From the sequence record OL631479.1: 64,000 nt of DNA. The stretch is one strand, 5' to 3'. A program made the position numbers and the translations under genes. The stretch's first letter is position 1. Each line of letters begins with the position of its first letter. Below, one piece after another: positions 1 to 36,030 of this stretch. The DNA is from Escherichia phage ECML-10. Below the pieces are notes generated by a model, which did no database searches, was not told the origin of the DNA, and saw only the letters and a program-made list of their open reading frames with translations.

Positions 1-1009
1 CTATCCACTCTGGGACAAACACTGATGGAAAATCTGTTTCAGAATACCCTTTGGTCGGACTAGTGAATCTGCCAGTTATTGTGTTGGATCTTTTGTCAAA
101 TGAGGCTTCCGGATAGATCTTTACCTCACCACAGACACAATCCTCACTCAGTGTCATTGTTGCCGGGCCATAATATGCACCGACCAGCAAACCATACTTA
201 CCAGCTACATAGCTGAGATCTGCTCCACAAGCTTTCAGCATTTCTGCCATAATACTTGCGGGAGCCTCATCCATGTCAAACTCACCGTTAATGGTGTAAC
301 GTCGCTCACTGGTTCCGTCAGCGTTTTTTACCGCCTCGTCGCATATGTTAGCAGCTTCCTTGAAGGACTCCCAGTTGATGGTTTCGTCAGGACATTTAAG
401 GTACGTTCTTAAATAGTCTAGGATCACCAAGGCCGCGTTATTGGTATACACCTCTTTACTGATACGAGGATCATAGCATTTTTTACCAACCTTGACGAGT
501 GTAACGTTTGGCAACCCAAAAGGAAACTTGTTAGGGTCAAACTTGAAGCTGGCACGTAGCCAACTGATCCCTCTACCTATCATGTCTGGTGACCACGATG
601 GACAGTGTGTCCCCATGAAAGGATCAGCTGTTTTTCTGTCGTTATGTAGCTCCCACGATACCAGATCTCCATACGAGGAAATAGGATTACCGTCGATGAG
701 TATGTCTTCTATACCTTCCAGAGGATGATTGGCAAGAACAATAGCACAGTGGAGAGTTCTGTCTCTATCCTGCTCCAAAAACGCAAGCAATCCGGATGTG
801 CGTGTCTTCCCATACACTACAGAGCAAGGTGCAGCAGAAGATCTGAGAAGCTTTTGTCTATCTTGCTGACTTCTGTAAGATTTGTTGCCCTCAAAAATCT
901 TATCCAGAGTTCTGGTGGTAACAGTGTTCAGGCTGTCAGCCAGAGCTGCCTTGGATGCGTTCCAGTCATAACTTGAAGATCTTGCAGAAGCAACGATGTT
1001 ATCAATCAT
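1..1009 (-). CDS. Tail tip / host-specificity-like protein, partial (runs off window start)
   Basis: Minus-strand ATG at 1009 (MIDNIVASARSSSYDWN...); manual translation stays open to position 1; last gene of the tail module. Not in ORF track because truncated. Confidence 0.35.
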   Translation of the reverse strand, partial: MIDNIVASARSSSYDWNASKAALADSLNTVTTRTLDKIFEGNKSYRSQQDRQKLLRSSAAPCSVVYGKTRTSGLLAFLEQDRDRTLHCAIVLANHPLEGIEDILIDGNPISSYGDLVSWELHNDRKTADPFMGTHCPSWSPDMIGRGISWLRASFKFDPNKFPFGLPNVTLVKVGKKCYDPRISKEVYTNNAALVILDYLRTYLKCPDETINWESFKEAANICDEAVKNADGTSERRYTINGEFDMDEAPASIMAEMLKACGADLSYVAGKYGLLVGAYYGPATMTLSEDCVCGEVKIYPEASFDKRSNTITGRFTSPTKGYSETDFPSVFVPEWI

Positions 1010-1020
1010 TGCAATTGGCA

Positions 1021-1458
1021 TTAATACCTCCAGACATCAACAACGACAGAATCTTTCATATCGAACATAAATACCCCTTTATCACCTTTCGCCCAAATCT
1101 GGTTGTTCCAGAACACACCAGCGGTGAGCCCGTTCAGACCTTCGAAGATAACAATATCTCCACGCTGAACCTGTTTAGGAGTATCCAGCCTAGTCATAAA
1201 GAGATCAAAAATAGTAGGCAGGTGTGTGGTTTTGAAACGGAGCATGCACCATCTTTTGCTTTCCAACTCCGTTTTATACGTTCCTTCGAAGTTAGAAAGA
1301 AAATCTGTTCCGTATTGGGCATCAACACACTTAGCTGCAAAGGTGCAACAATCGTGGAATCCCCATTCAAAAGGTATGGTGGCCTCTTCGTCAAATACTT
1401 TCCACAATCTTTCTTGCCAGTCCACTAGACGAGGATGTGTGCTCATTAAACCTCCCAA
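1021..1458 (-). CDS. Hypothetical tail-associated protein, possible Cys/His peptidase-like
   Basis: 145 aa; FHDCC motif; position in distal tail module. Confidence 0.3.
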   Translation of the reverse strand: MGGLMSTHPRLVDWQERLWKVFDEEATIPFEWGFHDCCTFAAKCVDAQYGTDFLSNFEGTYKTELESKRWCMLRFKTTHLPTIFDLFMTRLDTPKQVQRGDIVIFEGLNGLTAGVFWNNQIWAKGDKGVFMFDMKDSVVVDVWRY

Positions 1459-2012
1459 ATGATCGGGCGGCTCGCCACCTGATCCACATATTTAAAAAAT
1501 CTGTCATTATCGTTTCTTGAGCTGTGGCTTTCCTCCGTGTACCGATAAGGAAAACCTCTTAACCAACTGTTGAAGATGGAAGAGATGGATATGGACAAAG
1601 CACTATTCTCACCAGTCTGAATAGCCATATCTGTTATAAGGCCGTCAAACAAGCCATTAGTTGTAACAGGCAGACCATTCTCCATAGCGGTAATGTACAA
1701 CGTGGCACGACAACCAGAATACTCCGTCTTCAGCAGATCACCCACATACTTAGGATCAAACCCGTTCAATGTCGCTACCACAGATCCGAAGTTGGTGGCA
1801 TCTTTCTCAGACACAGCAGTTAATGTTGCTGATCCACCTATCCCTATAAAATGTTGCCCCTCAATTACTACAACACCAGTGCCTGAGCACACCCTGACAG
1901 TTCCTGTCGGTAGCTCCAGCTTTGCAGCAATTAAGATCTCAACACCATCAAGCTCCAGCTTTTCAAGAAATAAATTATCTAATGGCGCTCTGATCATCTT
2001 AGAAATCCTCAA
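1446..2012 (-). CDS. Hypothetical tail protein
   Basis: 188 aa ORF co-oriented and overlapping neighbours in tail module. Confidence 0.3.
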   Translation of the reverse strand: MRISKMIRAPLDNLFLEKLELDGVEILIAAKLELPTGTVRVCSGTGVVVIEGQHFIGIGGSATLTAVSEKDATNFGSVVATLNGFDPKYVGDLLKTEYSGCRATLYITAMENGLPVTTNGLFDGLITDMAIQTGENSALSISISSIFNSWLRGFPYRYTEESHSSRNDNDRFFKYVDQVASRPIIWEV

Positions 2013-2589
2013 AGAAGTTGATAACTATATTATCACCTTTTTGCATAGCATCGACTTTTTGCTTAATTTTGTAAATATCTCTGATATGAAACCTACCCTT
2101 CGGAGATTGAGTTATTATCTTCATGGTGTCCCCTGCGGCAATAGGTTTTCTAAGTCTTGGAGATATGCCTATAACAGCAGACCCAACACCATCACTACGC
2201 ACTGGAGCTGTTACCACTTTCAATTCATCATTGACAGATATTTTATCCCCAGCTCTGGCTATGTCTCTGTTTGGCTCCCACCCAACAGTCCTCAAAAAAT
2301 CATCGTTACCAGTAGGACCAAGGGCGATTGGCTCATTAGCTGTAACTGAGTGACCGTAAGTTTTAATAAGAAAGATGTTTCCATCTTTATACACCTGGTC
2401 AACAAAGCTCTTAAGCTCTAGCAACTGTGATTCGCTGATATTGGAAACCGTCAAAGTGCCTTTCCAGTTAGGTGTGGCATAGGTTACTTTTTGCGTTTTA
2501 CCTGTAAACGGACTTTTAAACGTAACAATATCTGCCAGCAGCTCCAATCTAATATCTGGAAGGTATCTAGGCCTTTCCCATAAAAACAT
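1999..2589 (-). CDS. Hypothetical tail protein
   Basis: 196 aa ORF directly downstream of the long tail fiber gene. Confidence 0.3.
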   Translation of the reverse strand: MFLWERPRYLPDIRLELLADIVTFKSPFTGKTQKVTYATPNWKGTLTVSNISESQLLELKSFVDQVYKDGNIFLIKTYGHSVTANEPIALGPTGNDDFLRTVGWEPNRDIARAGDKISVNDELKVVTAPVRSDGVGSAVIGISPRLRKPIAAGDTMKIITQSPKGRFHIRDIYKIKQKVDAMQKGDNIVINFFEDF

Positions 2590-2688: not shown

Positions 2689-5600
2689 TTACTTCAGTTT
2701 CTCTTGCAACCCAGTAACAACCTCTGTCAATTTTTTAACCTGCTCCTCAAGGGCGGTTATTTTATCGTCCTGTTCCCTGCAAACCTGGACAAGCAAGCCT
2801 GTTACGGCTGCGTAATCCACGCTGTAGAATCTTTCCTCTGTTATCAAAGGAGTTCCATCTTGATCAGGGTTTGGGATTTCCTTTCTTTGCACGAAAGAGC
2901 TAACTGCTTCCGGCAGCGCTTCAAGCACTTCTTGTGCTATAACACCTGCATAAGGCATACCGTTCTCTTTAAGAGTGTAAGTATAACCCTTCATCTTCCG
3001 GATAGCTTCTAACGCATCAGGAATAACAGATATGTTGTCTTTCAGGTCTCTGTCAGAGCTCTGATTGACAGATGTGCAATTCACAGCACCGTTTACAGAA
3101 AGATATCTTGATTTATCCGGCAAGGTACCGCAATGCCATACCCAATTTGCTTGAGACTCGTCAAGAACCTTAAACTCTAACACGTTTGGACGATCCCCTG
3201 TGCTGCCGTTACCCCAATAGTGCATATGGGCGGCATTAGCAGGCATGTTGCCACCGTTATTAGTAACATGGCTTCCAGAAATATATACCTTTAACTCTGA
3301 GGTCGGTATTTCCCCTTCGGGAGTTGTTCCTCCATATCTGAAGCTAACACCATTGCCACCTGTTTGGGTCCACGGGCCCCAAGTGAAGGTTTGTCTCACC
3401 ATATTACCATAACGTATAAATCTATCGCCGTGATAGGTAATATACTCTTGAACACACCCATTACCGTTATTGGCGTTATTCTGCAACACAATAAGTGTTC
3501 CAGCTTCATTTACCGGATAATGACGATCATATGTTGCATCATTATTTGCCGATTGATGGTAAATGCCTTCCCACAACCCATTATAGGTGTCAAGGTCTGA
3601 GGTACCGAGACCCTGACCCCTGTGCTGCATAGCCTTATTCCAGGGGTGGTGATTACCGCCTTCTATAGACCTGGTGTATAAGTTACTTTGTCTGCCAGCA
3701 ATCTGGAAAGCGTAGTTTCCCGAGAATCCTACAGATAAACCTCCTACAACCATGGTGTCTTGTGGACCGTTAACATTACCAGCCATTATTTTTGACGGGT
3801 TATTAGGCCCGAACTGGTTGTTCCAGTCTCCACCAGTATGACATACAAAACCACCTGGGGCTGAAAAAGTACCATCCTTATTGAAGTTGTAGAATCTATG
3901 AGCTGTGCCCACAACATCTCGAACAATAACTTGACCAGCCTCTGGAGTAGACCTGAACTCTGCTTGACCTTTAAGGCCAGCACCATTACCGCATTTAGAG
4001 GTAAACGTGCCGTTAGTTAGATCCTCTGTTCCATCTGATGCACACTGGAATCCTGCGTTAGAGAATAGCGCCTTTCTAGGACCACTGTAGCACAAATAGT
4101 CAAAACCGTCAGCCCATAGCTCTACTTTAGGCATGTTCATTTTGCTCATTATCGCATAGCGTTCAGCAGTGCCTATATAGTGCCACTGTGTGCCGCCGCC
4201 AGTGTAGAACCCAGAGGTACCTTTGAAGTCAACAATAGGTCTGGTGTTGGTATTGTTATCTCCGAGAACAGCCAGATTTAAATCTGCTGACTGGAGAGGT
4301 GCAACGAACTTAACACCGTCCTGATTGTCTGTTACAGAGCCAACCTGGTAATCTTGCTCCCTGGTAAACACCTCGACAACATTTCTACTTGCGTATATGC
4401 TGACAGGGAAAGCACGCGCCTCTGCATAGAAAGCAACATATTCTTGTTTACCCCTTGTTGGAGCAACCATCCCAAGAAGTGCTTTTTCATTCTGGTAGAA
4501 ATTTACTACCCCGTAGAAAGAGTCTCCTCTGTCTGTCCAACCACCAGTTCTATAGTGACACTGTAAGGTAGCACAGTTCATAGGGTCATTTCCAGATGAC
4601 GATCTGGTAACTATGGTAATATCAGTACCAGTTGCTGGAGCATAGTACGGATCTGTTCTAACGATGATCGGGTAGTATTTCCCATCTTCCATCCCTGCGG
4701 TTCTTGGCAGTGTTAAGAAGTCTTTCACACCTGCTGCTATAGGAACTTTGAACAGATTCTGAGCATCTGCTAGAGTTGTAGCCCCGGTGCCACCTGCGGC
4801 TTGAGGTAGAGGTTCCCACTTGGCCTTCCGGTTGTTATAAACACCCCATTCCAGAGTGCCGTTACCGGATTCGTCCATCCAGCCATCCCAGATAACCATC
4901 TTGGCGGCTTTCTTAGATCCCCAGAAGCCTCTTTCTGCTCCTGAACTACGTATCCACTCTCCAAGTCCCCAGTTTGTCAGCTGACCAGTAAGATCCCCAA
5001 CCTGCATGTATTTAGGGCAGTCTAATACACCGTCTTCGCGGAAACCCAAATATCTATGAGTTTCAGATCCTTTTGCACCTTTGTGGAGGTGGATTGTCAA
5101 CCAAGCCTTATTGTCGTTTCTTACCTCAGAGTAGATCCTATATCCATGCTCAAGGACACCGTCAGCGCTGTATTTGTCCCCGTTAACAATACCGGATGCT
5201 GACTTAACATCAGCAGAACTTTGAGACAGGTAAAGGTGCCCGAAGGTAGGAGAATTTCTAGACCCGAGACCGATGTGCGATCTAAAGGTATCATCGTTAC
5301 GAGGTCTAACCATCGGCTGCCATGCAGTCCACTGATTTGTGTTGGCCTGATAGGTTCTCAAATACCAAACATCTACGTTAGAGAATGGGTAGTATTCCTG
5401 ACGACAACCTGTACCGCCGTTAGCATTGTTCTGCCAAACAATCAAGTGACCAGCACCAGAACCTGCAGGGTAACCATTTGCCTCAGTTGCATAAGCAGTC
5501 ATCGGCTGGTAGTATACACCATCCTGATTACCAGTCAAGTTATTGATATTGAAATTTGGCTCAAGGGCTGCACGTTGCTTATAGAAAGCACCGATATTGA

Positions 5601-6501
5601 TACGGACTCCAGCGGCATCTCTAGCCCCTGTGCCGCCTTGCTCTATAGCAAGAGGTTGCCACGAAGCTGTTTGTTGGTTCCACATACCCCAACGGCCTGT
5701 TGCATCAAGCTGCAAGTACCCTGCCGTATTTAAATCATCTCCAGCACGGATAACTGTTCTTGTTGGGTTGTTTGCCTCTAGGCGTTTAAATTCATCACGA
5801 AGTGCTATTCTTTTCGTTGTTGCTACACCGTTGGTTACTGCAATGGTGTACATGGCTCCGGTGGTAGCGCCACGGAAAATACCATCAACAGTTGTAGTAT
5901 CACGGCGAGATACCACACCGTTCAGAAATTTTTCACCAGCTGCTACAGAAGGGTAGTTGGTGGTTCTTCCCTCTTCAATAACTGCAGGGCCAACAAAGTT
6001 ATCAAGGTGAATAACATCGCCTACGGTGTGCACTGTACCAAAATCTACACGCTGTGCAAGTGCTTTAGCATCGTTAGCTGTCTGAACAGTAACATCCATT
6101 ACATCCTGGACAGACTGCCCTTCGGCTGTCATGATCATAGATGCGCCAATGGTAGATTCCAGCTCCTCCCTTAAGGACGGGTCAGTATATACCATCCATG
6201 CAGCGTCAGTAATCCCACCATCAGCGTACGGTGAAGACAGTGCAGGAACAGTGTGCGGAAATTCACCTTTCCAACGCAGGTAGAGGTCTTCCTCTTCGAA
6301 GTAGGCAAAATCCATTGGGCCGTTTAACTTACCACCTTCCTTAAAGGAGATTACATGAGAAACAGTCCCATCCACATGGACAACATCGCCAATTTTTACA
6401 CGACGGGTCAGGTCTGGTTGCTGAACAACCAGGTAATCATCCTCTGTCACTGCGGTAGTGGCAGGAAGAGATTCAATTCTGACAACTTTAATATCAGCCA
6501 T
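2689..6501 (-). CDS. Long tail fiber protein with C-terminal intramolecular chaperone (peptidase S74-like) domain
   Basis: 1270 aa; internal repeats with W-x-P-L...GGTGA motif; C-terminus SDRDLKDNISVIPDALEAIRKMKGYTYTLKE resembles tail-fiber auto-cleaving chaperone domain; N-terminal ~100 aa shared with the 9136-9804 protein. Confidence 0.75.
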   Translation of the reverse strand: MADIKVVRIESLPATTAVTEDDYLVVQQPDLTRRVKIGDVVHVDGTVSHVISFKEGGKLNGPMDFAYFEEEDLYLRWKGEFPHTVPALSSPYADGGITDAAWMVYTDPSLREELESTIGASMIMTAEGQSVQDVMDVTVQTANDAKALAQRVDFGTVHTVGDVIHLDNFVGPAVIEEGRTTNYPSVAAGEKFLNGVVSRRDTTTVDGIFRGATTGAMYTIAVTNGVATTKRIALRDEFKRLEANNPTRTVIRAGDDLNTAGYLQLDATGRWGMWNQQTASWQPLAIEQGGTGARDAAGVRINIGAFYKQRAALEPNFNINNLTGNQDGVYYQPMTAYATEANGYPAGSGAGHLIVWQNNANGGTGCRQEYYPFSNVDVWYLRTYQANTNQWTAWQPMVRPRNDDTFRSHIGLGSRNSPTFGHLYLSQSSADVKSASGIVNGDKYSADGVLEHGYRIYSEVRNDNKAWLTIHLHKGAKGSETHRYLGFREDGVLDCPKYMQVGDLTGQLTNWGLGEWIRSSGAERGFWGSKKAAKMVIWDGWMDESGNGTLEWGVYNNRKAKWEPLPQAAGGTGATTLADAQNLFKVPIAAGVKDFLTLPRTAGMEDGKYYPIIVRTDPYYAPATGTDITIVTRSSSGNDPMNCATLQCHYRTGGWTDRGDSFYGVVNFYQNEKALLGMVAPTRGKQEYVAFYAEARAFPVSIYASRNVVEVFTREQDYQVGSVTDNQDGVKFVAPLQSADLNLAVLGDNNTNTRPIVDFKGTSGFYTGGGTQWHYIGTAERYAIMSKMNMPKVELWADGFDYLCYSGPRKALFSNAGFQCASDGTEDLTNGTFTSKCGNGAGLKGQAEFRSTPEAGQVIVRDVVGTAHRFYNFNKDGTFSAPGGFVCHTGGDWNNQFGPNNPSKIMAGNVNGPQDTMVVGGLSVGFSGNYAFQIAGRQSNLYTRSIEGGNHHPWNKAMQHRGQGLGTSDLDTYNGLWEGIYHQSANNDATYDRHYPVNEAGTLIVLQNNANNGNGCVQEYITYHGDRFIRYGNMVRQTFTWGPWTQTGGNGVSFRYGGTTPEGEIPTSELKVYISGSHVTNNGGNMPANAAHMHYWGNGSTGDRPNVLEFKVLDESQANWVWHCGTLPDKSRYLSVNGAVNCTSVNQSSDRDLKDNISVIPDALEAIRKMKGYTYTLKENGMPYAGVIAQEVLEALPEAVSSFVQRKEIPNPDQDGTPLITEERFYSVDYAAVTGLLVQVCREQDDKITALEEQVKKLTEVVTGLQEKLK

Positions 6502-6515
6502 TCTTTCTCCTGAAA

Positions 6516-6532
6516 GGGGGCAAACAGCCCCC
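6516..6532 (-). terminator. Hairpin (GGGGGCUGUUUGCCCCC on minus strand) between 865-aa gene and long fiber gene
   Basis: GC stem 5 nt after stop of 6537-9134 gene, followed by short U-run then RBS AGGAGAAAG of fiber gene. Confidence 0.4.
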
Positions 6533-6536
6533 TATG

Positions 6537-9134
6537 TTAAAGGTACAATCCACGGTATTGAGCATAAAGGCCCAGACCGCGAAGGATTTCGCCAGAGTGA
6601 TAGCCAACCGGATCAGAAACTGCCCAGCAGCCGTTTAAAATATTATCCCCATTAATGAAGTGGTGCTTTTGCAGTAGCTTCACACAGGCTTCTACAACAA
6701 TATCTATTTGAGGTATTGTCTCTGAATATCCGCACAGACCTAGCCAGCAGCAACCTGCAAGCCATTCACCTACCACCCACATCCTGTCTCCTCTGTCCTG
6801 ATAAGAATATCCCCCAGAGGTGTTAAAGTCTGTAGGCAGATTTCCTGAATGAGATGACTGGAATCTGTTGAGGAACCATGCCCATTTCTGGCAGAACAGG
6901 AATAGTCTTTCATCAACAGGTTCTTTATGTTTCTTGAGCTCATATATTGTGCGGCACGCAGCAACAAAAGATCTTGACTGGAGCTTAGAGTTATCTACCA
7001 TCTCCCACCAACCAGTCAACCCTTCATTACCTCTTTGCCATACATAACGTGAGGCAACTGGACCCTCTGTCTTAAATGTATTATTATACCAGACTTGAGC
7101 GTCATACAGAAAGCCTATTGTATTTGACAATCTATGGCGATCTATGTTTTCTGCACCCATGCAGTAGACTGCTGGGTATTGCATGCCAGGGTAGGGCCAA
7201 TTTGGCTTTTCCTCTAAGAGATAGTTTTCCTTATCTATCACCTTTCCGGCAGGGAACACACCCGGTGTGTGCCTGTATGCACCTTGCTTGTAGTTTCTGA
7301 CATAGCAATCTCCAACCTTAGCGGTTGATTCTGTCTTGCTTGCCATCCATACACTAAACCAGATTAGATAAGCATCCCTATCTGCAATATAGAATTGCGG
7401 CAGCGTGTTGACGCAATATAGATCAAACAAGCCATTACCTATCTGCCTGTCGCTTAGGCTGAAATCCACAGAGGTGAGCCCCTTAGGATTAGCAAAGAAA
7501 GGTTTAATCTCTTCTTCGGTGTGATGAGGTTGTGTCGGATCTAGTTTGAAATCTCCTAGAGTAAGAGTTTCTGTTATCCATTGTCCATTAGTGGCATATA
7601 GATCAGCATACCATAACCACCTGTCTTTGTCAAGAAATTTGACCCTTACCATCTCATCATCTGATCGATAAGTTACTGAGTTTAAAGAAATCTCTCTTCC
7701 AAAATTGAAAGTTACTTTACCTCTTGCTATATTACAACGGGTGAAGTTGTCAGAGTGGTTGTAAATGTCGGTATCATACTGCATACTGACACTAGCGCCA
7801 CCGCTCACGGCAATGTTTTCCTCTTTAGGTAAGAGATACGGATTACCGTCTTTACCAACCACCTCTACGAAATCGGTAACCTTGGCAACTATTTCTGTTA
7901 CCTCTGCCCCTCCAAAAGGAACCCCTATCCTGTACTGTTTTTTGTTATTGTTGCCATCATTAAGGATGAAATGTGGCTGGAACAGAACCCCTTCTCCTCC
8001 GAAATTCATAACAATTTCAGCATCTCTGCCTATTTTGTATGTAGTCCCTTTTTGGATTATTTCGCAAGGCTGGCGTGCGTTCATTCTAAAATTGATATAC
8101 CCGTCACTGTCCCTGCTCATGACAGGAACTGTTCCTGCAACAAGACAAGTACCATCTGTAAACGGTGCCTTAATCAACGTGGTCTTTCTAAACAGTTTGT
8201 CGTAGGCGTTTATATCACTGAAATTAAGCAACTTGTTGTAAGACTGTTCAAACGCGGTGTAATACTTTTCCTCACCTGTTAAGGTGTAGAGTTGATAACA
8301 AGCGTCACACCACATCTCTTCCCCGTCCAACTCTGGGGCTTGATTATCTGCAACCACGTTTATAGGATTTACAATTACAGGCGATCCTGCAGGTATCACC
8401 GATCCACCCTGCTCTTGGGGTAATCTTACACAATAGGTCACCTTGTGGCTGCCTGTAACACCCTTATCTTGTAATTGGATTGTGCCGAACTCTACAGACG
8501 TATGACCACTGTCGGCTATGCTACCGTTAGCCCAATAGCGGTTACCATCCCATGCTATATACCACTCAACCCACCAACTTAATCCAGATGTTGTCCAATC
8601 TGGGTTAGCATCTGTGCCGCCGTAAACATCAGCGTCTACAGTGTTTCTTCCTAACACACCGTTATATGCTTGGAAGGCCTTGTCCAGGTATTCTCCCCAT
8701 GTCGGAGATCCAGCTGGGATTTTTCCTCTACCGTTAGTAAAAGACACCACCACATCTTTAAACCCACCATGTGATGGGACCCCGTCTGTGGATAGAGGGT
8801 AGTGGGACAATCTTTGCATTTTACTTTCTACAGCATATGCGCCCAGAAGATGACTATTGTAAGCTTCCCAAGCATCTTTTGCCCTATCCAGATAGAAATC
8901 GCTTTTCGATGCCCTGTATGCTTCAATGTATCCCAGAATCAACACAGCTTGGGACTCATGCATTGCCCAATCATTATTTATCTTATTACCTGCCCACCCT
9001 GCAGCTATAAGACCATCAGGGTTTACTAGCTTATTTTGTGTAGGGGTGTTGGTAATACCTGTGTTGTTATCGAGGCACTTCCTGTGCCCCTCAATCATCT
9101 GAAATACGTTATCAATGTTGTGTTGAATACGCAT
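6537..9134 (-). CDS. Tail fiber/spike-like protein, possibly enzymatic (glycosidase-like)
   Basis: 865 aa, Trp/Gly/Tyr-rich, between two fiber genes; no recognised anchor domain. Confidence 0.45.
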   Translation of the reverse strand: MRIQHNIDNVFQMIEGHRKCLDNNTGITNTPTQNKLVNPDGLIAAGWAGNKINNDWAMHESQAVLILGYIEAYRASKSDFYLDRAKDAWEAYNSHLLGAYAVESKMQRLSHYPLSTDGVPSHGGFKDVVVSFTNGRGKIPAGSPTWGEYLDKAFQAYNGVLGRNTVDADVYGGTDANPDWTTSGLSWWVEWYIAWDGNRYWANGSIADSGHTSVEFGTIQLQDKGVTGSHKVTYCVRLPQEQGGSVIPAGSPVIVNPINVVADNQAPELDGEEMWCDACYQLYTLTGEEKYYTAFEQSYNKLLNFSDINAYDKLFRKTTLIKAPFTDGTCLVAGTVPVMSRDSDGYINFRMNARQPCEIIQKGTTYKIGRDAEIVMNFGGEGVLFQPHFILNDGNNNKKQYRIGVPFGGAEVTEIVAKVTDFVEVVGKDGNPYLLPKEENIAVSGGASVSMQYDTDIYNHSDNFTRCNIARGKVTFNFGREISLNSVTYRSDDEMVRVKFLDKDRWLWYADLYATNGQWITETLTLGDFKLDPTQPHHTEEEIKPFFANPKGLTSVDFSLSDRQIGNGLFDLYCVNTLPQFYIADRDAYLIWFSVWMASKTESTAKVGDCYVRNYKQGAYRHTPGVFPAGKVIDKENYLLEEKPNWPYPGMQYPAVYCMGAENIDRHRLSNTIGFLYDAQVWYNNTFKTEGPVASRYVWQRGNEGLTGWWEMVDNSKLQSRSFVAACRTIYELKKHKEPVDERLFLFCQKWAWFLNRFQSSHSGNLPTDFNTSGGYSYQDRGDRMWVVGEWLAGCCWLGLCGYSETIPQIDIVVEACVKLLQKHHFINGDNILNGCWAVSDPVGYHSGEILRGLGLYAQYRGLYL

Positions 9135-9135
9135 C

Positions 9136-9804
9136 TTAGATAGCTCCTGCGATAATCAGTGCCCCGTACCAAGTTAACCCGTTGTCGTAGGTTTCCAACT
9201 TGAAAATGTCTGTTGCACCAGCCGTGAATGTTAGGATAGGATCTCTTCCATAAGCCCATTTAACATTATCAGGCCAATAGACTTTGTTGCCGCCAGAGGT
9301 CTGCGTAATGCATACGGTTATAGTTCTCGCCACCCCTTCAAGACCTTCTGTTTGATTTTCAAAAGAGATTGTGGTATTTGAAGTTAGTCGAACTTTAAAG
9401 GTATCCGCAACTTCAAGATCCATATCAAGCTGACCACCGATAGATCCGTAATCAACTATTCTGCCAGAAGAAGTTGCAGCAAGCTCACCAAAAACAGACC
9501 AGGCATTTGCAGACACACCCCCAGCACCCTCTACAGTGGAGTCTGGGAGGATTATTTTAGGATAATCCCCGTTCCACGTGTAGTAGCGCTTAGTTTCGGG
9601 GTCGTAAGCAAAGTCCTTCTTGCTCTTAAGATAACCACCCTCTGTGAAATAGACTATCTTAGTAATGCTAAGATCGTTGACAACATCGTCAATCTTAGCC
9701 TTTCTTGTCCCATCAGTCTGGTTGACAACCAAGAAGTCATCACTCAGGACTGTTTCTGCATCTTCAAGATCTGGAATTGGTATTGTAGGATAAGCTACAG
9801 CCAT
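9136..9804 (-). CDS. Short tail fiber/spike protein sharing N-terminal anchor domain with long fiber
   Basis: 222 aa; N-terminus (DDFLVVNQTDGTRKAKIDDVV...YFTEGGYLKSKKDFAY) aligns with N-terminus of 2689-6501 product. Confidence 0.5.
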   Translation of the reverse strand: MAVAYPTIPIPDLEDAETVLSDDFLVVNQTDGTRKAKIDDVVNDLSITKIVYFTEGGYLKSKKDFAYDPETKRYYTWNGDYPKIILPDSTVEGAGGVSANAWSVFGELAATSSGRIVDYGSIGGQLDMDLEVADTFKVRLTSNTTISFENQTEGLEGVARTITVCITQTSGGNKVYWPDNVKWAYGRDPILTFTAGATDIFKLETYDNGLTWYGALIIAGAI

Positions 9805-9813
9805 GATTTCTCC

Positions 9814-10530
9814 TTAGTTAACATCAATAGCACGACCAGACTGGTTGGCAATAGCCTCATCGTTGGAGGTAGCAATAACACCAGAGTATTCGCGCTCATC
9901 TGGAGCAAGCGTCCAGGTATTGCGGTTAATGGTTTGTTCTGCCTCAGTCATCAGCAGATCTTTATCCTGAGTCAACAGAGAGCCTACAGGGATCGGGTTT
10001 TCCATCTCAGGACCAGCATACTGGTTCCACCATGTGGCATCTCCGGTTCTAGGCAACCTGAAGTTGATCAGATAGTACAGTTTATTAGCCCACTTAATCC
10101 AACCCTCATCATCACAGAGAGAGGTTGTCCCAGAATCAGGCTGTGGGTAGGTGAACTGATCAAGACCTACGAAAGCCAGTCTTACAATCTCGTTCTCTTT
10201 GGTAACAACCTCAAAGAACGCTTGGTATGTTCTCGATCTTCGATCCATGGTAGACTGGAAGTTTATGATGTTTAGCACATCCGGCTCTTGTCTTGCCACT
10301 TCCATGATCTTGTTATCAAGAACAGTCTTCATGACCTTCTTACTGAGAAAGTCCATATAAGGGAAGCCAAACAACTCGTCAAAGTACCAGCTCCCCTTCC
10401 ACGTATTAAACCTCATCCACAAGCGCTGGCGCAGACTTACCTGGTTTGAATCTATCAACTCAAGACCTTTGTCTATCGCCAAATCGCCTGTCTGTGGGTC
10501 CATCAATATATCACTATAAAGCGTAGCCAT
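9814..10530 (-). CDS. Putative baseplate protein
   Basis: 238 aa ORF between spike-like protein and fibers. Confidence 0.35.
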   Translation of the reverse strand: MATLYSDILMDPQTGDLAIDKGLELIDSNQVSLRQRLWMRFNTWKGSWYFDELFGFPYMDFLSKKVMKTVLDNKIMEVARQEPDVLNIINFQSTMDRRSRTYQAFFEVVTKENEIVRLAFVGLDQFTYPQPDSGTTSLCDDEGWIKWANKLYYLINFRLPRTGDATWWNQYAGPEMENPIPVGSLLTQDKDLLMTEAEQTINRNTWTLAPDEREYSGVIATSNDEAIANQSGRAIDVN

Positions 10531-10542
10531 GAAAGCCCTCTA

Positions 10543-11220
10543 TTAGTGCGGTCCACTTGTCTCGCCATCAGGGCAAGAGTGGGTATGACCTTTATATTCT
10601 GCATAGAATGAATCCAAATCCACACCAGCAGCAGTTATAATTCTACCAGATGGGTCTATTGTGGCACCATTCATTCTGATATTTCCATCCACAGCAGCTC
10701 GCAAATTGGCAGCCCCGTTAGTGAAAGAAAACTCCCCACTGCTGTCGCACCGTAATGTCCCACCAGGTGTTTGAAGCTCAAAATCGCCAGAAGGTGTCAG
10801 TTTAAAATAAACCCTATCATTCCATAACTCTACGTTATCAGGATCGATCTGTAAAGCGTTTGAGTCTGAATGAACAGAGGTGATTGCCCACCCTGGAAAC
10901 AGGCCGTGAGTTTGTTGATCGTCGTTATTGTTTTCATTTCTCTCTGAAAACTGCAATCCTACAACATCTCCGGCCTTAATAGGAAGTGTTAACCTTGCCT
11001 TTCCGCTGTTTGCGGACATCACTTGGATTGGAACGTCATAGATAAGAGGGTATCTCTCCACATCTCCGTCATCAAACGTGGTTTCAGCTATTGGCTGCAC
11101 GGCTGCAGAAGGTATACTGTAGTCAACACTGACAACTCTGGCCCTGATACTTGTGTGGTAGTCCCTCATCATTTTTTCTATGAAGGATCTTACAGCAGCA
11201 TCTTTCCTATTTATTGCCAT
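10543..11220 (-). CDS. Putative baseplate central spike protein
   Basis: 225 aa; Gly/Asn-rich beta-helix-like repeats and C-terminal His/Cys cluster (GHTHSCPDGETSGPH). Confidence 0.35.
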   Translation of the reverse strand: MAINRKDAAVRSFIEKMMRDYHTSIRARVVSVDYSIPSAAVQPIAETTFDDGDVERYPLIYDVPIQVMSANSGKARLTLPIKAGDVVGLQFSERNENNNDDQQTHGLFPGWAITSVHSDSNALQIDPDNVELWNDRVYFKLTPSGDFELQTPGGTLRCDSSGEFSFTNGAANLRAAVDGNIRMNGATIDPSGRIITAAGVDLDSFYAEYKGHTHSCPDGETSGPH

Positions 11221-12224
11221 TATACCTCCTCAGTTTTGTCAACAACTCCACCCACTGTTTCCCCAAGGCCAAGCTCTGTAGTGTAATCACCTCCTTCTAT
11301 GGTGCCCTTATGATGCACCGTGATCACCTTATAGAATCCTGTATATTGCTTGCTTTTAAGATAAATAGTGGACTCTGGGAGGATAGCTCCGTTAAGGCAG
11401 GTGGTTACAGTAAGGCCAACATCCTCTCTCGGGTTTTTCTTTTTCTTTTTAGATGTCGAACCACCTTTGGCAGCAGCTTTAGCTTTTCGTTTTTTAGCAG
11501 GTTCTGGGTTTTTAGGGGTAGGCGATCCGTGCATCCCAGACTCTGCACTTATTTCAAACACAGAGTCTTTGAACCTTTTTCCAACCTTGGTCCAATACAA
11601 AGCTCCATCCTGAACGCTAAATGTGGAGTTGGTCAGCCTTGCAAACCTGCGGAGGTTCTCTGCAGTGTTTCCAGAGAAAGCCATAGAGTATTGCAAAGTC
11701 TGGTTTCCAAAACCAACAACCCTACCTTTTGGCAAGTTCATATCCTTCAGTAGGTCATTAAGCACAGAGTTCAGAGGTGTGCCTTTCTGATAAGATCTTG
11801 TGCTTTGGCACTTAATGATGTTCTCAGTACCATCCCCGAAGATGAACTTAGTTTTTCTGGTCGGACCTTCCCATCTGTCTTCAACAAACTCTACAGTTCC
11901 GGAGAATATCAACTGGTTCTCATCATCATAGCCAGCTTCAAACATAACTGCAAGGGCATCAGCCTGATGCATATCCAGATAGTTAACTGTATCGTCAGAC
12001 AGGTTGTAAACTGTCACATAACCTTTGTTTGGCTCTTTGGTATTGTCCTTTTGTATGTCAAACTCTATATTGGCGGCACCAGTGTCTGAGCTAACTTCAT
12101 AAACTCCGGAATCACTCTCCCCTTTCTTTTCAACAGATTTTGGGATATTGGTTTTTGATTTACCGCCATGCTCTACCGGACGACCAAACAATAATCGCCA
12201 TGTTCTACGTCTGTACTCTGCCAT
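11220..12224 (-). CDS. Putative baseplate/tail hub protein
   Basis: 334 aa with Lys-rich internal linker; position after tape measure. Confidence 0.3.
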   Translation of the reverse strand: MAEYRRRTWRLLFGRPVEHGGKSKTNIPKSVEKKGESDSGVYEVSSDTGAANIEFDIQKDNTKEPNKGYVTVYNLSDDTVNYLDMHQADALAVMFEAGYDDENQLIFSGTVEFVEDRWEGPTRKTKFIFGDGTENIIKCQSTRSYQKGTPLNSVLNDLLKDMNLPKGRVVGFGNQTLQYSMAFSGNTAENLRRFARLTNSTFSVQDGALYWTKVGKRFKDSVFEISAESGMHGSPTPKNPEPAKKRKAKAAAKGGSTSKKKKKNPREDVGLTVTTCLNGAILPESTIYLKSKQYTGFYKVITVHHKGTIEGGDYTTELGLGETVGGVVDKTEEV

Positions 12225-30143: not shown

Positions 30144-30221
30144 GTGGTCTCCACGGAGTGATTCGAACACTCGACCTCCTGATCCCAAATCAGGCGCTCT
30201 ACCAAGCTGAGCTACGCGGAG
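30144..30221 (-). tRNA. tRNA-Pro (anticodon UGG)
   Basis: Hand-folded cloverleaf: 7-bp acceptor, T-loop TTCGAAT, anticodon loop UUUGGGA, encoded CCA. Confidence 0.75.
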
Positions 30222-30232
30222 TATTCATTATT

Positions 30233-30307
30233 TGGTGGCCCTGGGTGGAATTGAACCACCGTCTGGCGATTATGAGTCGCTTGCTTGAACCTTCCAGCTA
30301 CAGGGCC
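30233..30307 (-). tRNA. tRNA-Met (anticodon CAU; could be Ile-lysidine type)
   Basis: Acceptor GGCCCTG/CAGGGCC, T-loop TTCAATT, anticodon loop CUCAUAA, CCA encoded. Confidence 0.7.
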
Positions 30308-30308
30308 A

Positions 30309-30384
30309 TGGTGCTGATGGCAGGACTTGAACCTGCAACCTATTGATTACAAATCAATTGCACTACCAATTGTGCTACATCAGC
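30309..30384 (-). tRNA. tRNA-Thr (anticodon UGU)
   Basis: Acceptor GCTGATG/CATCAGC, D-stem GCAC/GTGC, anticodon loop UUUGUAA, T-loop TTCAAGT, CCA encoded. Confidence 0.7.
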
Positions 30385-30390
30385 AAAAAG

Positions 30391-30488
30391 GTGCTAGGTG
30401 ATGGAATCGAACCACCTATGTATTCAACGACTACCTCGTCTATTTTCAGGATTAAAAATCCTCGCCCTTGCCAAAGGGCTTACCTAGC
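30391..30488 (-). tRNA. Atypical tRNA-like gene (~98 nt), isotype unresolved
   Basis: Perfect 7-bp acceptor and 4-bp D-stem, T-loop TTCGATT; anticodon arm has only 4 bp with loop UUUUUAA (UUU) and a ~30-nt variable region. Confidence 0.4.
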
Positions 30489-30596
30489 TCAGTATGTTGA
30501 CCATGTTGCTAGTCGGCGATGACGACTGTAACATTTGATAATCCGGTTCTGCTTCCGGCTTTCGCTTAATTACAAGGTCAACAATATGGCAGAGGA

Positions 30597-30686
30597 TAAT
30601 GGAATCGAACCATCATCGAGTCATCCTCAACGGGACGGTTTTCAAGACCGCTTGAGCACCATTGCTCCCTACCCTCTTTTATAAAC
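30597..30686 (-). tRNA. tRNA-Ser (anticodon UGA)
   Basis: Type II tRNA with long variable arm; anticodon loop CUUGAAA; T-loop TTCGATT; CCA encoded. Confidence 0.65.
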
Positions 30687-30791
30687 AATACTGATAATGA
30701 CACTGATTTTCGAGCAGTTAGTGACTAGTATAAACGACGATAAATATCAATGCCATTATCTGTATGATTTATGCATTTAAAAATATAAATT

Positions 30792-30879
30792 TGGTGGTGA
30801 GTGATGGAGTCGAACCACCAGAATCGCAATGATAACAGATTTACAGTCTGCCCCGCTACCCCTACGGAATTAACTCACC
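30792..30879 (-). tRNA. tRNA-Tyr (anticodon GUA)
   Basis: Acceptor GGTGAGT/ACTCACC, anticodon loop CUGUAAA, long variable arm, T-loop TTCGACT, CCA encoded. Confidence 0.7.
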
Positions 30880-31009
30880 TAAATACTAATATTTAAATTC
30901 TTTTTAAAATAGCTAGTGTTCTCACCACTAACTATGAGGTATCGGTAAAGTGGTTACCGCCACTTGCCGAAGATTTACTCTGCTAAAGTAAGCTACATTA
31001 AAAAGAACT

Positions 31010-31084
31010 TGGCACCCCGTACTGGACTCGAACCAGTGTCAACGGCTTAGAAGGCCGCTGCTTTATCCACTAAGCTAACAGGGC
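31010..31084 (-). tRNA. tRNA-Arg (anticodon UCU)
   Basis: Acceptor with two G-U pairs, D-stem GCTT/AAGC, anticodon loop CUUCUAA, T-loop TTCGAGT, CCA encoded. Confidence 0.65.
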
Positions 31085-33974: not shown

Positions 33975-34021
33975 ATCTCCTGATTCTCCTTGTGTGGCAA
34001 TTTTCTTTAAAATAGCAGGGA

Positions 34022-34576
34022 TTACTCCCCGCTGTCAATAGCAAGACTCATTGCAATACGGTATGCCTCTTCTAATGGTAAGAGTCTCCCCCACACATCC
34101 CAACCGACATCAAGCTGCCTGCCAAACAACTGTTGTGTGGTTCCGTGAGCATGACCGAACAGTTGGACTGATCCATGAGGCTTTCTGTTCCACTTTGCAA
34201 ACTGGTAATGGCTCATACAGATCAAATTCTTGTTGTGGCGAAGCTCGTAATAATCTACAACCTCGTGATAGAACTCTTTCATAATTCTGACAGTCGTCCT
34301 TGTGTCATGGTTGCCACGAACAAGAATAATATGTCCGTTCAACATATTTAGAATATCCGGGAGTAAGTTGTTGATATTCTTATCATTAGTGCACGCAATA
34401 TCTCCCAAGTGGAACACAGTGTCTGCAGGTGACACAACAGAGTTCCACTCGGCGATGATTCCTGCATTCATACTGTCAAGATTGTGATCATACTGAGATC
34501 TGTGTTTTTGACATGAATCAAACTCCATGACCCGCTGGTGGAGAAAGTGTGTGTCGCTTGTTACAAAGTATTTCAT
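34022..34576 (-). CDS. Calcineurin-like metallophosphoesterase
   Basis: Motifs GDIACTND, GNHD, GHAHG; start at ATG 34576 (RBS GAGGAA) just after kinase gene stop. Confidence 0.65.
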   Translation of the reverse strand: MKYFVTSDTHFLHQRVMEFDSCQKHRSQYDHNLDSMNAGIIAEWNSVVSPADTVFHLGDIACTNDKNINNLLPDILNMLNGHIILVRGNHDTRTTVRIMKEFYHEVVDYYELRHNKNLICMSHYQFAKWNRKPHGSVQLFGHAHGTTQQLFGRQLDVGWDVWGRLLPLEEAYRIAMSLAIDSGE

Positions 34577-34583
34577 ACATTCC

Positions 34584-34994
34584 TCATTTAAGTTTAATGC
34601 AGTTTTTAAGCTGGCGTTCCATACGATCCACAACCCTGTCTGGAACATCATGAATGCTTTTATTACCGTGGCGGTTTTCAACCACGATCACGGTATAACT
34701 ATACCCATGACTGATTGCCATGTCAATATATTCTTGCACATGTTTTTCTTTTGTAAACGTATTACTTACCACGATACGGTCGTATCCCATACGCATCATA
34801 TCTTCTACGTTATCTTTGCACCATTTTGCTGCAAGTGTTACTTTACTTGCATCCCAGTTGTAATTTCCGTCATCGTCGTACCAGAACATGTCGTTCTCAA
34901 AATGTGGATACAGACCTTCTAAAGATAGAGCATTTGCCAGTGTTGATTTGCCAGACCCTGGTATACCACGCACGATATATAGCATTTTAGACAT
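34584..34994 (-). CDS. P-loop polynucleotide kinase-like protein
   Basis: Walker A GIPGSGKST near N-terminus like T4 Pnk kinase domain; start ATG 34994 with RBS GGGGGA. Confidence 0.5.
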   Translation of the reverse strand: MSKMLYIVRGIPGSGKSTLANALSLEGLYPHFENDMFWYDDDGNYNWDASKVTLAAKWCKDNVEDMMRMGYDRIVVSNTFTKEKHVQEYIDMAISHGYSYTVIVVENRHGNKSIHDVPDRVVDRMERQLKNCIKLK

Positions 34995-35022
34995 AGCAAT
35001 CCCCCGTTTTAATTTTAATGAT

Positions 35023-35051
35023 AGTATACCTAACTGTTTTGTTAATTTCAA
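35023..35051 (-). promoter_or_regulatory. Sigma70-like promoter (TTGAAA-N17-TATACT) for kinase/phosphoesterase genes
   Basis: Minus-strand hexamers in divergent intergenic region. Confidence 0.4.
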
Positions 35052-35054
35052 GTG

Positions 35055-35084
35055 TTGACACTAGGTTGTTTGTGTGGCAGGATA
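35055..35084 (+). promoter_or_regulatory. Candidate promoter for RNA ligase operon (TTGACA, weak -10)
   Basis: TTGACA at 35055-35060; -10 region diverged; shares leading GTTGACA with other plus-strand promoters. Confidence 0.3.
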
Positions 35085-35094
35085 GACTGACAAA

Positions 35095-36030
35095 ATGACA
35101 AATGAGGAACGTATGATGAAGTATTTTAATGCAGACGATCTAGTTGACAAAGGTCTTGTAACCAGTCGATATTATCCAGATCTTGGATTAAAGATCTATA
35201 AATATGCCAGAAAAGTATTCTACAACAATCTGTGGCATTTGTCCCCTCGTTTGCTGGAGTGCCGAGGCATTGTTGTCGGTAATGAAGGAAATGTTGTGGC
35301 ATGGCCCTTCACAAAAGTGTTTAACTTGGGAGAAAATCACACCAACCTGCCTGACAATAAGCTTGTGACGGCGGTAGAGAAAAAGAACGGATTCCTCGGC
35401 GTGGTGTCATCTCATAAAGGTGAACTATTGTTCTCAACAACCGGATCTCTTGATTCCCCATATTGTAACCTCGCAAAGGAAACCATCCGGGAGCAATGTG
35501 GTAATTTAGATCTTATCAAGAAGGTTATGGGCAATGAAAACATGACATTCATGTTTGAAATTTGTCACCCTTCAGATCCGCATATTGTTCAGGAAGATCA
35601 TGGCGCATATTTGATAGGTTGCAGATATAATGATTCTGGAATAATGCTGCCAGAAGCAGCTTTAGATGGGATTGCCAAATACCTTGGCGCAAAACGTCCT
35701 CACACTGTGCGTGAAATTCCGTTCAGCTATGCAAAAGAATTGGCTGCAGAAACAAGAGGTGAAGGGTATATGATTCGTAAGCCTTACTACCCTTATGATC
35801 TGCAGCTGAAGATCAAGTCTCCATACTATCTGGCACGGAAGGCCGTAATGAGGGGTAAAGCTTGGAAGATTTGGGATGATGATATCTTTAAACGTGTTGA
35901 CGAAGAGTTTTACGGCATGGTAAACTTCATTCGTAGCAATTACACAGAAGATGTGTGGAACTGCCTACTGGAGCAGGAACGCAGGGAGATACTCGACCAC
36001 TATTTCCACAACGAGGACTATATGCAATGA
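35095..36030 (+). CDS. rnlA: RNA ligase 1 (T4 RnlA-like)
   Basis: LLECRGIVV, FTKVFNLGEN, VEKKNGFLGVV (motif I), GEGYMIRK (motif IV), LKIKS (motif V); matches T4 Rnl1 as recalled. Alternative start ATG 35113. Confidence 0.7.
   Translation: MTNEERMMKYFNADDLVDKGLVTSRYYPDLGLKIYKYARKVFYNNLWHLSPRLLECRGIVVGNEGNVVAWPFTKVFNLGENHTNLPDNKLVTAVEKKNGFLGVVSSHKGELLFSTTGSLDSPYCNLAKETIREQCGNLDLIKKVMGNENMTFMFEICHPSDPHIVQEDHGAYLIGCRYNDSGIMLPEAALDGIAKYLGAKRPHTVREIPFSYAKELAAETRGEGYMIRKPYYPYDLQLKIKSPYYLARKAVMRGKAWKIWDDDIFKRVDEEFYGMVNFIRSNYTEDVWNCLLEQERREILDHYFHNEDYMQ

Follow-up and report, generated by a model that had tools for sequence, protein, structure and literature searches.

Does the long tail fiber of Escherichia phage ECML-10 end in a domain that assists its folding and then cuts itself off, so that the fiber on the virion is shorter than its open reading frame (ORF)? 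The question arose from an initial annotation of a 64,000-nucleotide stretch of sequence record OL631479.1 (the window), which singled out positions 2689-3100 at the end of one long gene, that is, residues 1134-1270 and the stop codon. In the ORF list this gene is a single minus-strand frame of 1270 codons, and its 1270-residue product has a computed mass of 139.2 kDa. Judged by sequence, it is the lateral tail fiber gene of a Vequintavirus, an rV5-like Escherichia coli phage, and of the rV5 gp41 type. We find that the protein ends in a peptidase S74 intramolecular chaperone of 122 residues (S1149-K1270), which very probably cleaves itself off after assembly, and that the segment in front of it is hypervariable among alleles.

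That this fiber carries an S74 domain is already known and in itself ordinary, and the S74 mechanism is textbook matter. The 2013 paper on rV5 lists PF13884 and an HHpred match to 3GW6 for gp41 (PMC3606486), and in 2025 RBPseg reported on the S74 domain in the fiber of phage MaxBurger and on its absence from the virion map (PMC12143355). Added here are the hypervariable segment (residues ~1041-1120) that precedes the conserved chaperone, and the replacement of the distal end in other alleles.

The initial annotation had proposed the chaperone from a resemblance of the C-terminal ~130 residues, and had named a hidden Markov model search as a check. Such a search matches Pfam PF13884 (Peptidase_S74) strongly at residues 1149-1200 (E = 1.6e-13), with 51.2 bits against a curated cut-off of 22 bits and with profile positions 1-57 of 58 covered. 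Pfam match, catalytic dyad and predicted fold all bear the chaperone out; only its length needs correction, to 122 residues, and the C-terminal string quoted for it, SDRDLKDNISVIPDALEAIRKMKGYTYTLKE (residues 1149-1179, positions 2965-3057), begins at Ser1149. The domain forms the very end of a protein that PHROG 6578, 'tail fiber protein', covers from end to end (E = 0), and it follows a β-rich segment that resembles T4 gp34. S74 modules were found in 1,346 of 50,697 phage records.

The S74 family is defined experimentally by a serine at the scissile bond and a lysine five residues later, and mutation of either abolishes cleavage. This has been observed for S1264A in pb1, the L-shaped tail fibre protein of phage T5 (PMC4690869), and for S587A/K592A in MyRF, which are equivalent to S911/K916 of the K1F endosialidase endoNF (PMC8326128). 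When the C-termini of T5 pb1, K1F gp17, the window fiber and diverse homologs are aligned, Ser1149 (codon 3055-3057) and Lys1154 (codon 3040-3042) stand in invariant columns with S1264/K1269 of T5 pb1 and S911/K916 of K1F gp17, the T5 stretch T-S-D-A-R-L-K lying opposite S-S-D-R-D-L-K of the fiber. A homolog-profile match to MyRF (7dc3) aligns the same two residues with S587 and K592, the serine being S587(A) in that entry. In 30 of 30 aligned homologs the S-D-x-x-x-K motif has its Ser, Asp and Lys, and it is likewise present in all 25 full-length alleles of ~1270 residues.

An AlphaFold2 monomer model of residues 1090-1270 has a mean predicted local distance difference test score (pLDDT) of 86.4 and ends in a 40-residue helix, in keeping with the mixed α/β part and the trimerising C-terminal helix that characterise the family. 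Compared with the PDB by Foldseek, it retrieves only 3GW6 (E = 7e-5) and 7DC3 (E = 4e-4) at E < 1e-3, both with probability 1.0 and with moderate TM-scores (template modelling scores) of 0.4-0.6. The best structural match, 3GW6, is the chaperone of the K1F endosialidase (endoNF CIMCD): it has an aligned Ser-x4-Lys and likewise sits at the C-terminus of a trimeric host-recognition protein, but it shares only ~16% sequence identity with the S74 domain of the fiber, and its passenger is a sialidase, here a fiber. Moreover, the K1F and T5 sequences contain long insertions (the 'tentacle' hairpin region), which the S74 domain of the window lacks. The second match, 7DC3, is the ICA domain of MyRF; it has the best TM-score (0.59 on target) and an aligned dyad, and since MyRF is a eukaryotic membrane transcription factor the likeness holds at the domain level only. 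In sequence, the closest solved relative of the C-terminal module is the distal long tail fiber gp37 of phage S16 (6F45; E = 1.4e-5 with the single sequence, 8e-16 with the homolog profile), which shares the 'SSDR..K' motif and the C-terminal helix; the profile also matches MyRF 7dc3 (E = 1.5e-6) and, weakly, the GA-1 appendage 3gud (E = 0.12). The long lateral fiber of T5 ends in an S74 chaperone as well (4UW7/4UW8). Homology to T5 pb1 over the whole protein was considered and rejected: the best full-protein BLASTP match has E = 2.0, no part of pb1 beyond the chaperone, its shaft and its bullet-shaped receptor-binding domain included, is significantly similar, and only the S74 motif aligns. 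The C-terminal helix is presumed to be the trimerising coiled coil of the chaperone. A high coiled-coil probability has been reported for the corresponding region of rV5 gp41 (PMC3606486), and trimerisation of MyRF is driven by a C-terminal coiled coil (PMC8326128).

On the canonical reading, the chaperone trimerises, templates the fold of the tip, is cut off at S1148|S1149 by the Ser1149/Lys1154 dyad and leaves, whereby the tip is exposed; we consider it very likely that this reading applies to the fiber of the window. The fiber would then be made as a 139-kDa precursor, three S74 domains would associate, mainly via their C-terminal helix, and would put the three chains in register, which would let the upstream trimeric β-structure of the tip fold. 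Once the correct fold is reached, Ser1149, activated by Lys1154, would attack the S1148-S1149 peptide bond, and the S74 domain is predicted to be released only after the trimer has folded. By computation, this cleavage would yield a mature fiber of 1148 residues and 125.6 kDa, which stays, and an acidic fragment of 13.7 kDa, which would depart as a chaperone trimer (3 x 13.7 kDa). The N-terminal Tail_spike_N domain would anchor the fiber to the baseplate complex, and the internal repeats (a GGTGA junction and a knob-like β-domain, each present twice) would serve as building blocks of the shaft. The new distal end would be the hypervariable segment of residues ~1041-1148, most likely the part in contact with the host surface.

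The allele comparison bears on this last step. In the bin starting at residue 1041, identity to the alleles of phages Murica and navn is 20%, and the adjoining S74 domain is 93-100% identical. Residues ~1041-1120 are our candidate for the receptor-contacting tip of the mature fiber. T5 pb1 is the model for such an unmasking of a binding tip by cleavage: only its cleaved tip competes for adsorption (PMC4690869). Alternatively, the cleaved tip of the window fiber may dock a separate gp38-like adhesin, as in S16 and T2, and not bind the receptor itself. RBPseg raised this possibility for MaxBurger (PMC12143355), and it gains from the fact that S16 gp37, the closest solved relative, carries gp38 at its tip. 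We nevertheless regard it as unlikely: unlike in S16, no adhesin gene adjoins the fiber gene in the neighbourhood, to which the examination was confined, and a terminator-like hairpin and then a Dit-like gene follow the stop codon; the RBPseg maps are without adhesin density (PMC12143355); and the distal ~80 residues of the fiber are themselves hypervariable, as expected for a direct receptor-binding surface.

As to the canonical reading of a chaperone that folds the tip and then cuts itself off, both functions are inferred, and the best evidence for cleavage, itself indirect, comes from MaxBurger. The electron cryo-microscopy (cryo-EM) map of its S74-bearing fiber, RBP_11, has no density for the peptidase domain, 'as expected' (PMC12143355). 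In the MaxBurger genome S74 is encoded at a single site, with which the gene of the 94%-identical ortholog bas54_0027 ends, and therefore RBP_11 must be this protein. That the mature fiber is shorter than its ORF, as the initial annotation had foreseen, is thus indirectly supported.

Several points weigh against this conclusion. The identity of RBP_11 is deduced from the single site; the maps have a low resolution of 7.3-9.5 Å (PMC12143355), and the absent S74 density could also reflect flexibility. For the window fiber and for rV5 gp41 cleavage is a prediction, and our models of the S74 domain are monomers. Mass spectrometry of rV5 virions recovered eight gp41 peptides, all from residues 434-1073 and none from the chaperone, which is uninformative on cleavage because coverage is 8% and the chance probability of such an outcome is P = 0.375; a 'proteomics' paper on an O177 phage contains no experimental fiber data. 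Finally, no residue of the fiber clearly corresponds to the arginine 'folding sensor' that a neighbouring chain provides in endoNF and T5 (Arg1250). Asp1129 aligns with T5 Asp1239, but opposite T5 Arg1250 the alignment has a gap; Arg1132 lacks conservation, and Arg1104, which 22 of 31 homologs keep, is distant in sequence.

These points would suit a domain that is retained as a permanent C-terminal trimerisation or coiled-coil cap without self-cleavage: an upstream arginine sensor is not identifiable, and a small flexible cap could escape low-resolution cryo-EM (PMC12143355). Such a cap is, in our view, improbable. The Ser-Lys dyad is intact and invariant; no studied member of the family does without it, and in each of them it looks sufficient (PMC8326128); the Arg/Asp sensor is not universal, for MyRF lacks it and cleaves without a stalk sensor (PMC8326128); and the authors of RBPseg themselves had expected the S74 density to be absent (PMC12143355). 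That the fiber is an endosialidase (endo-N-acetylneuraminidase) tailspike, as a GenBank annotation (MG963916) and the HHpred match between rV5 gp41 and 3GW6, an entry for the K1F endosialidase, would have it, is close to excluded, given that 3GW6 is the chaperone domain and not the catalytic part, that similarity to K1F gp17 is limited to the C-terminal module, and that Pfam finds only Tail_spike_N and S74 in the 1270 residues and no sialidase β-propeller or other glycosidase domain even segment-wise at E <= 10. The label 'endo-N-acetylneuraminidase' stands on the ortholog of phage PDX (AVJ51858.1, 4201-8019 of the PDX locus), where it appears to be an annotation transfer from the K1F endosialidase chaperone domain.

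Variation among the alleles is not confined to the tip. A second variable zone lies at residues ~560-830 among S74-bearing alleles, and in comparison with MaxBurger the central residues ~640-840 are 62-88% identical per bin. A megablast search with the last 672 nucleotides of the gene returns three coverage classes, full, ~534 and ~430 nucleotides, which suggests recombination breakpoints immediately before the chaperone. Other Vequintavirus alleles have no more than the proximal shaft in common with the window fiber, their distal end being a different one altogether: a class of ~1480 residues, represented by phage JeffSchatz, has a weakly ConA/lectin-like C-terminus and no S74 domain, and further classes have ~1198 residues, or ~1620 residues with a tail Collar domain. 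Alleles of the JeffSchatz type diverge at residue ~1047, which coincides with the end of the second copy of an internal repeat (repeat B). This allele structure agrees with the variation that the BASEL paper reports for the three large lateral-fiber genes (PMC8594841). Beyond the genus, the LTF alleles of the T5-like phages JLBYU43 and HildyBeyeler share the fiber shaft at ~33-35% identity.

The JeffSchatz allele (bas55_0027) is accompanied by an additional acidic ORF of 110 residues (phrog_1361; 6940-7272 of the JeffSchatz locus) that abuts the fiber stop codon and is not present at the fiber locus of the window. Pfam and PDB sequence searches with it gave no match; from its position alone, it may encode a trans-acting fiber chaperone. 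We can tentatively picture the distal end of these fibers as an exchangeable cassette with its own folding device, in which the conserved knob and S74 domains flank the tip (residues ~960/1041-1120) as recombination arms, and to which the lectin-like head with the phrog_1361 product, as the counterpart acting in trans, would be the alternative; this is a possible arrangement, though on balance a doubtful one.

The initial annotation had also noticed duplicated motifs within the fiber, and these are indeed there: GGTGA occurs at residues 289 and 570, each time preceded by W-x-P-L (at 281 and 562), and the motif [LIV]3-x-QNNAN-x-G-x-GC-x-QEY starts at residues 353 and 1003, with QNNAN at 357 and 1007. 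Alignment scores of the surrounding segments lie far above those of shuffled sequences: 81 for repeat A (shuffles 30.4 +/- 5.7, maximum 50; z = 8.8) and 110 for repeat B (shuffles 36.1 +/- 6.6, maximum 59; z = 11.2). At the DNA level, only short chance matches were found within the fiber gene, none of them underlying repeat A or B; the duplications are real and visible at the protein level only, and therefore old. In an AlphaFold2 monomer model of the first repeat unit, pLDDT is 59 overall; the β-domain reaches 65-81, but the GGTGA stretch stays below 50, which is why the GGTGA segment probably folds only as a trimer. The motif occurs one to four times in related fibers, and this varying copy number fits a junction between modules. 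Foldseek places the first copy of repeat B closest to the R2 pyocin fiber 6CL6 and the AS12 tailspike 6EU4 (E = 2.4e-4, probability 1.0), followed by T4 gp34; the QNNAN unit may tentatively be regarded as a knob-type shaft domain, a lead and not a family membership in view of identities of ~20% to the R-type pyocin knob domains and the T4 gp34 shaft and of the low to moderate pLDDT. According to RBPseg, fibers of this class have a 'pyocin knob' (D7) and, in duplicate, a 'mobile' domain D42 (PMC12143355). When six internal segments were scanned against Pfam at E <= 10, no credible match emerged, and repeats A and B belong to no Pfam family. A homologous-protein search with residues 240-420 alone returned no matches; the index evidently misses long orthologs when queried with short segments, and the full-length query worked.

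At the other end of the protein, the region of the Tail_spike_N domain has PDB sequence matches to the N-terminal parts of 9occ_G, 9lna_A, 9d84_A, 4qnl_A and 5w6h_A (CBA120 TSP4), by analogy with which it presumably attaches the fiber to the baseplate or to an adaptor. Within the ~55 residues before the cleavage site, the homolog profile matches T4 gp34 (5nxf and 4uxe, E about 1e-3) over 'WGN..R..V.E....FY.Q....NG'. The coordinates of these features are collected in Table 1.

Table 1. Features of the lateral tail fiber gene and its 3' border, in window coordinates
Feature	Positions	Strand	Evidence
Lateral tail fiber gene, 1270 residues	2689..6501	minus	ORF list; PHROG 6578; orthologs rV5 gp41, bas52_0026, bas54_0027
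N-terminal Tail_spike_N anchor domain (presumed), residues 46-103	6193..6366	minus	Pfam PF18668, E = 1.1e-9
Repeat A copy 1, W-x-P-L...GGTGA junction, residues 266-330	5512..5706	minus	Motif; z = 8.8
Repeat B copy 1, LIV-x-QNNAN-x-G-x-GC-x-QEY knob-like β-domain, residues 318-394	5320..5550	minus	Motif; z = 11.2; Foldseek
Repeat A copy 2, W-x-P-L...GGTGA junction, residues 547-609	4675..4863	minus	Motif; alignment to copy 1
Repeat B copy 2, QNNAN knob-like domain, residues 969-1044	3370..3597	minus	Motif; alignment to copy 1
Hypervariable distal segment, residues ~1041-1120	3142..3381	minus	Allele identity per bin
β-rich segment before the predicted cleavage site, last part of the putative mature fiber, residues ~1095-1148	3058..3219	minus	T4 gp34-like; AlphaFold2 β-strands
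Catalytic motif S1149-D-R-D-L-K1154, predicted scissile bond S1148|S1149	3040..3057	minus	Homolog alignment
Peptidase S74 intramolecular chaperone, residues 1149-1270 (122 residues, 13.7 kDa, isoelectric point 4.6)	2692..3057	minus	Pfam; homolog profile; AlphaFold2; Foldseek
C-terminal long α-helix, residues ~1230-1269	2695..2814	minus	AlphaFold2 fragment residues 141-180, pLDDT 93-96
Strong hairpin resembling an intrinsic terminator, immediately behind the fiber stop codon	2662..2681	minus	8-bp stem (7 G-C) and T-run

The closest relatives of the fiber gene are found within Vequintavirus. The 'lateral tail fiber protein' of RudolfGeigy (bas52_0026) is 99.6% identical in nucleotides and 99.8% in amino acids, rV5 gp41 (1272 residues) is 95.7% identical in amino acids, and the MaxBurger protein has a single substitution within the last 130 residues. 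These three (the MaxBurger protein is RBPseg class TC12) have the same gene, the same length, the same neighbours and the same Tail_spike_N and S74 architecture, and differ from the window fiber by point substitutions only. In nucleotide comparison, ~120 further rV5-like phages match the gene. More than 20 records labelled 'Campylobacter phage' (GenBank MG065644-MG065690; A142, C7, D1 and others) are 96-100% identical to it; they are described as Campylobacter jejuni phages, yet their genome sizes are rV5-like. The host label looks doubtful, and these are possibly contaminating coliphages.

ORFs on the plus strand that overlap the fiber gene are short and without support, and the GC skew is negative across the surrounding 34 kb, as fits minus-strand genes. 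Its sign flips at ~34000-36000 (negative at 1-34 kb, positive at 36-64 kb), which indicates a switch of the coding strand between two divergent gene blocks. At the place equivalent to the hairpin behind the fiber stop codon, the record of phage Murica annotates a terminator; the hairpin suggests either that a transcription unit stops with the fiber gene or that transcription is attenuated before the J-type module that follows. This module (window 1-2589, minus strand) is a siphovirus-style tip module within a myovirus, directly downstream of the fiber gene, and consists of a Dit-like distal tail protein of 196 residues (phrog_1302, E = 1e-49), a tail protein (phrog_2048), a DUF6950 protein and a lambda-J-like central fiber of 1279 residues with Phage_Tail_Tip and Ig_J domains, inside whose gene the window begins; its counterpart in a related record lies at 6494-11901. 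Upstream of the fiber gene, the minus strand at 6537-9134 encodes an 865-residue 'lateral tail fiber with glycosidase domains', the ortholog of rV5 gp42 (phrog_2871), for which Pfam gave no match at E <= 0.01. Further upstream, Tail_spike_N is found a second time, in a small protein orthologous to rV5 gp43; this suggests that several fibers attach through a branched complex. Elsewhere in the window, seven tRNA calls (Pro, Met, Thr, Ser, Tyr and Arg) are clustered on the minus strand at 30145-31084, among them an odd 'tRNA-???' of 99 nucleotides (30390-30488) with a four-base anticodon (atcc).

For the annotation of these phages, this means that the fiber on the virion is best given as residues 1-1148 and not as the full ORF, and that labels such as 'endo-N-acetylneuraminidase' on the orthologs are misleading. 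For the host-range engineering of rV5-like therapeutic phages, the segment to be swapped is the one between the second knob domain and the S74 domain, with the chaperone kept intact.

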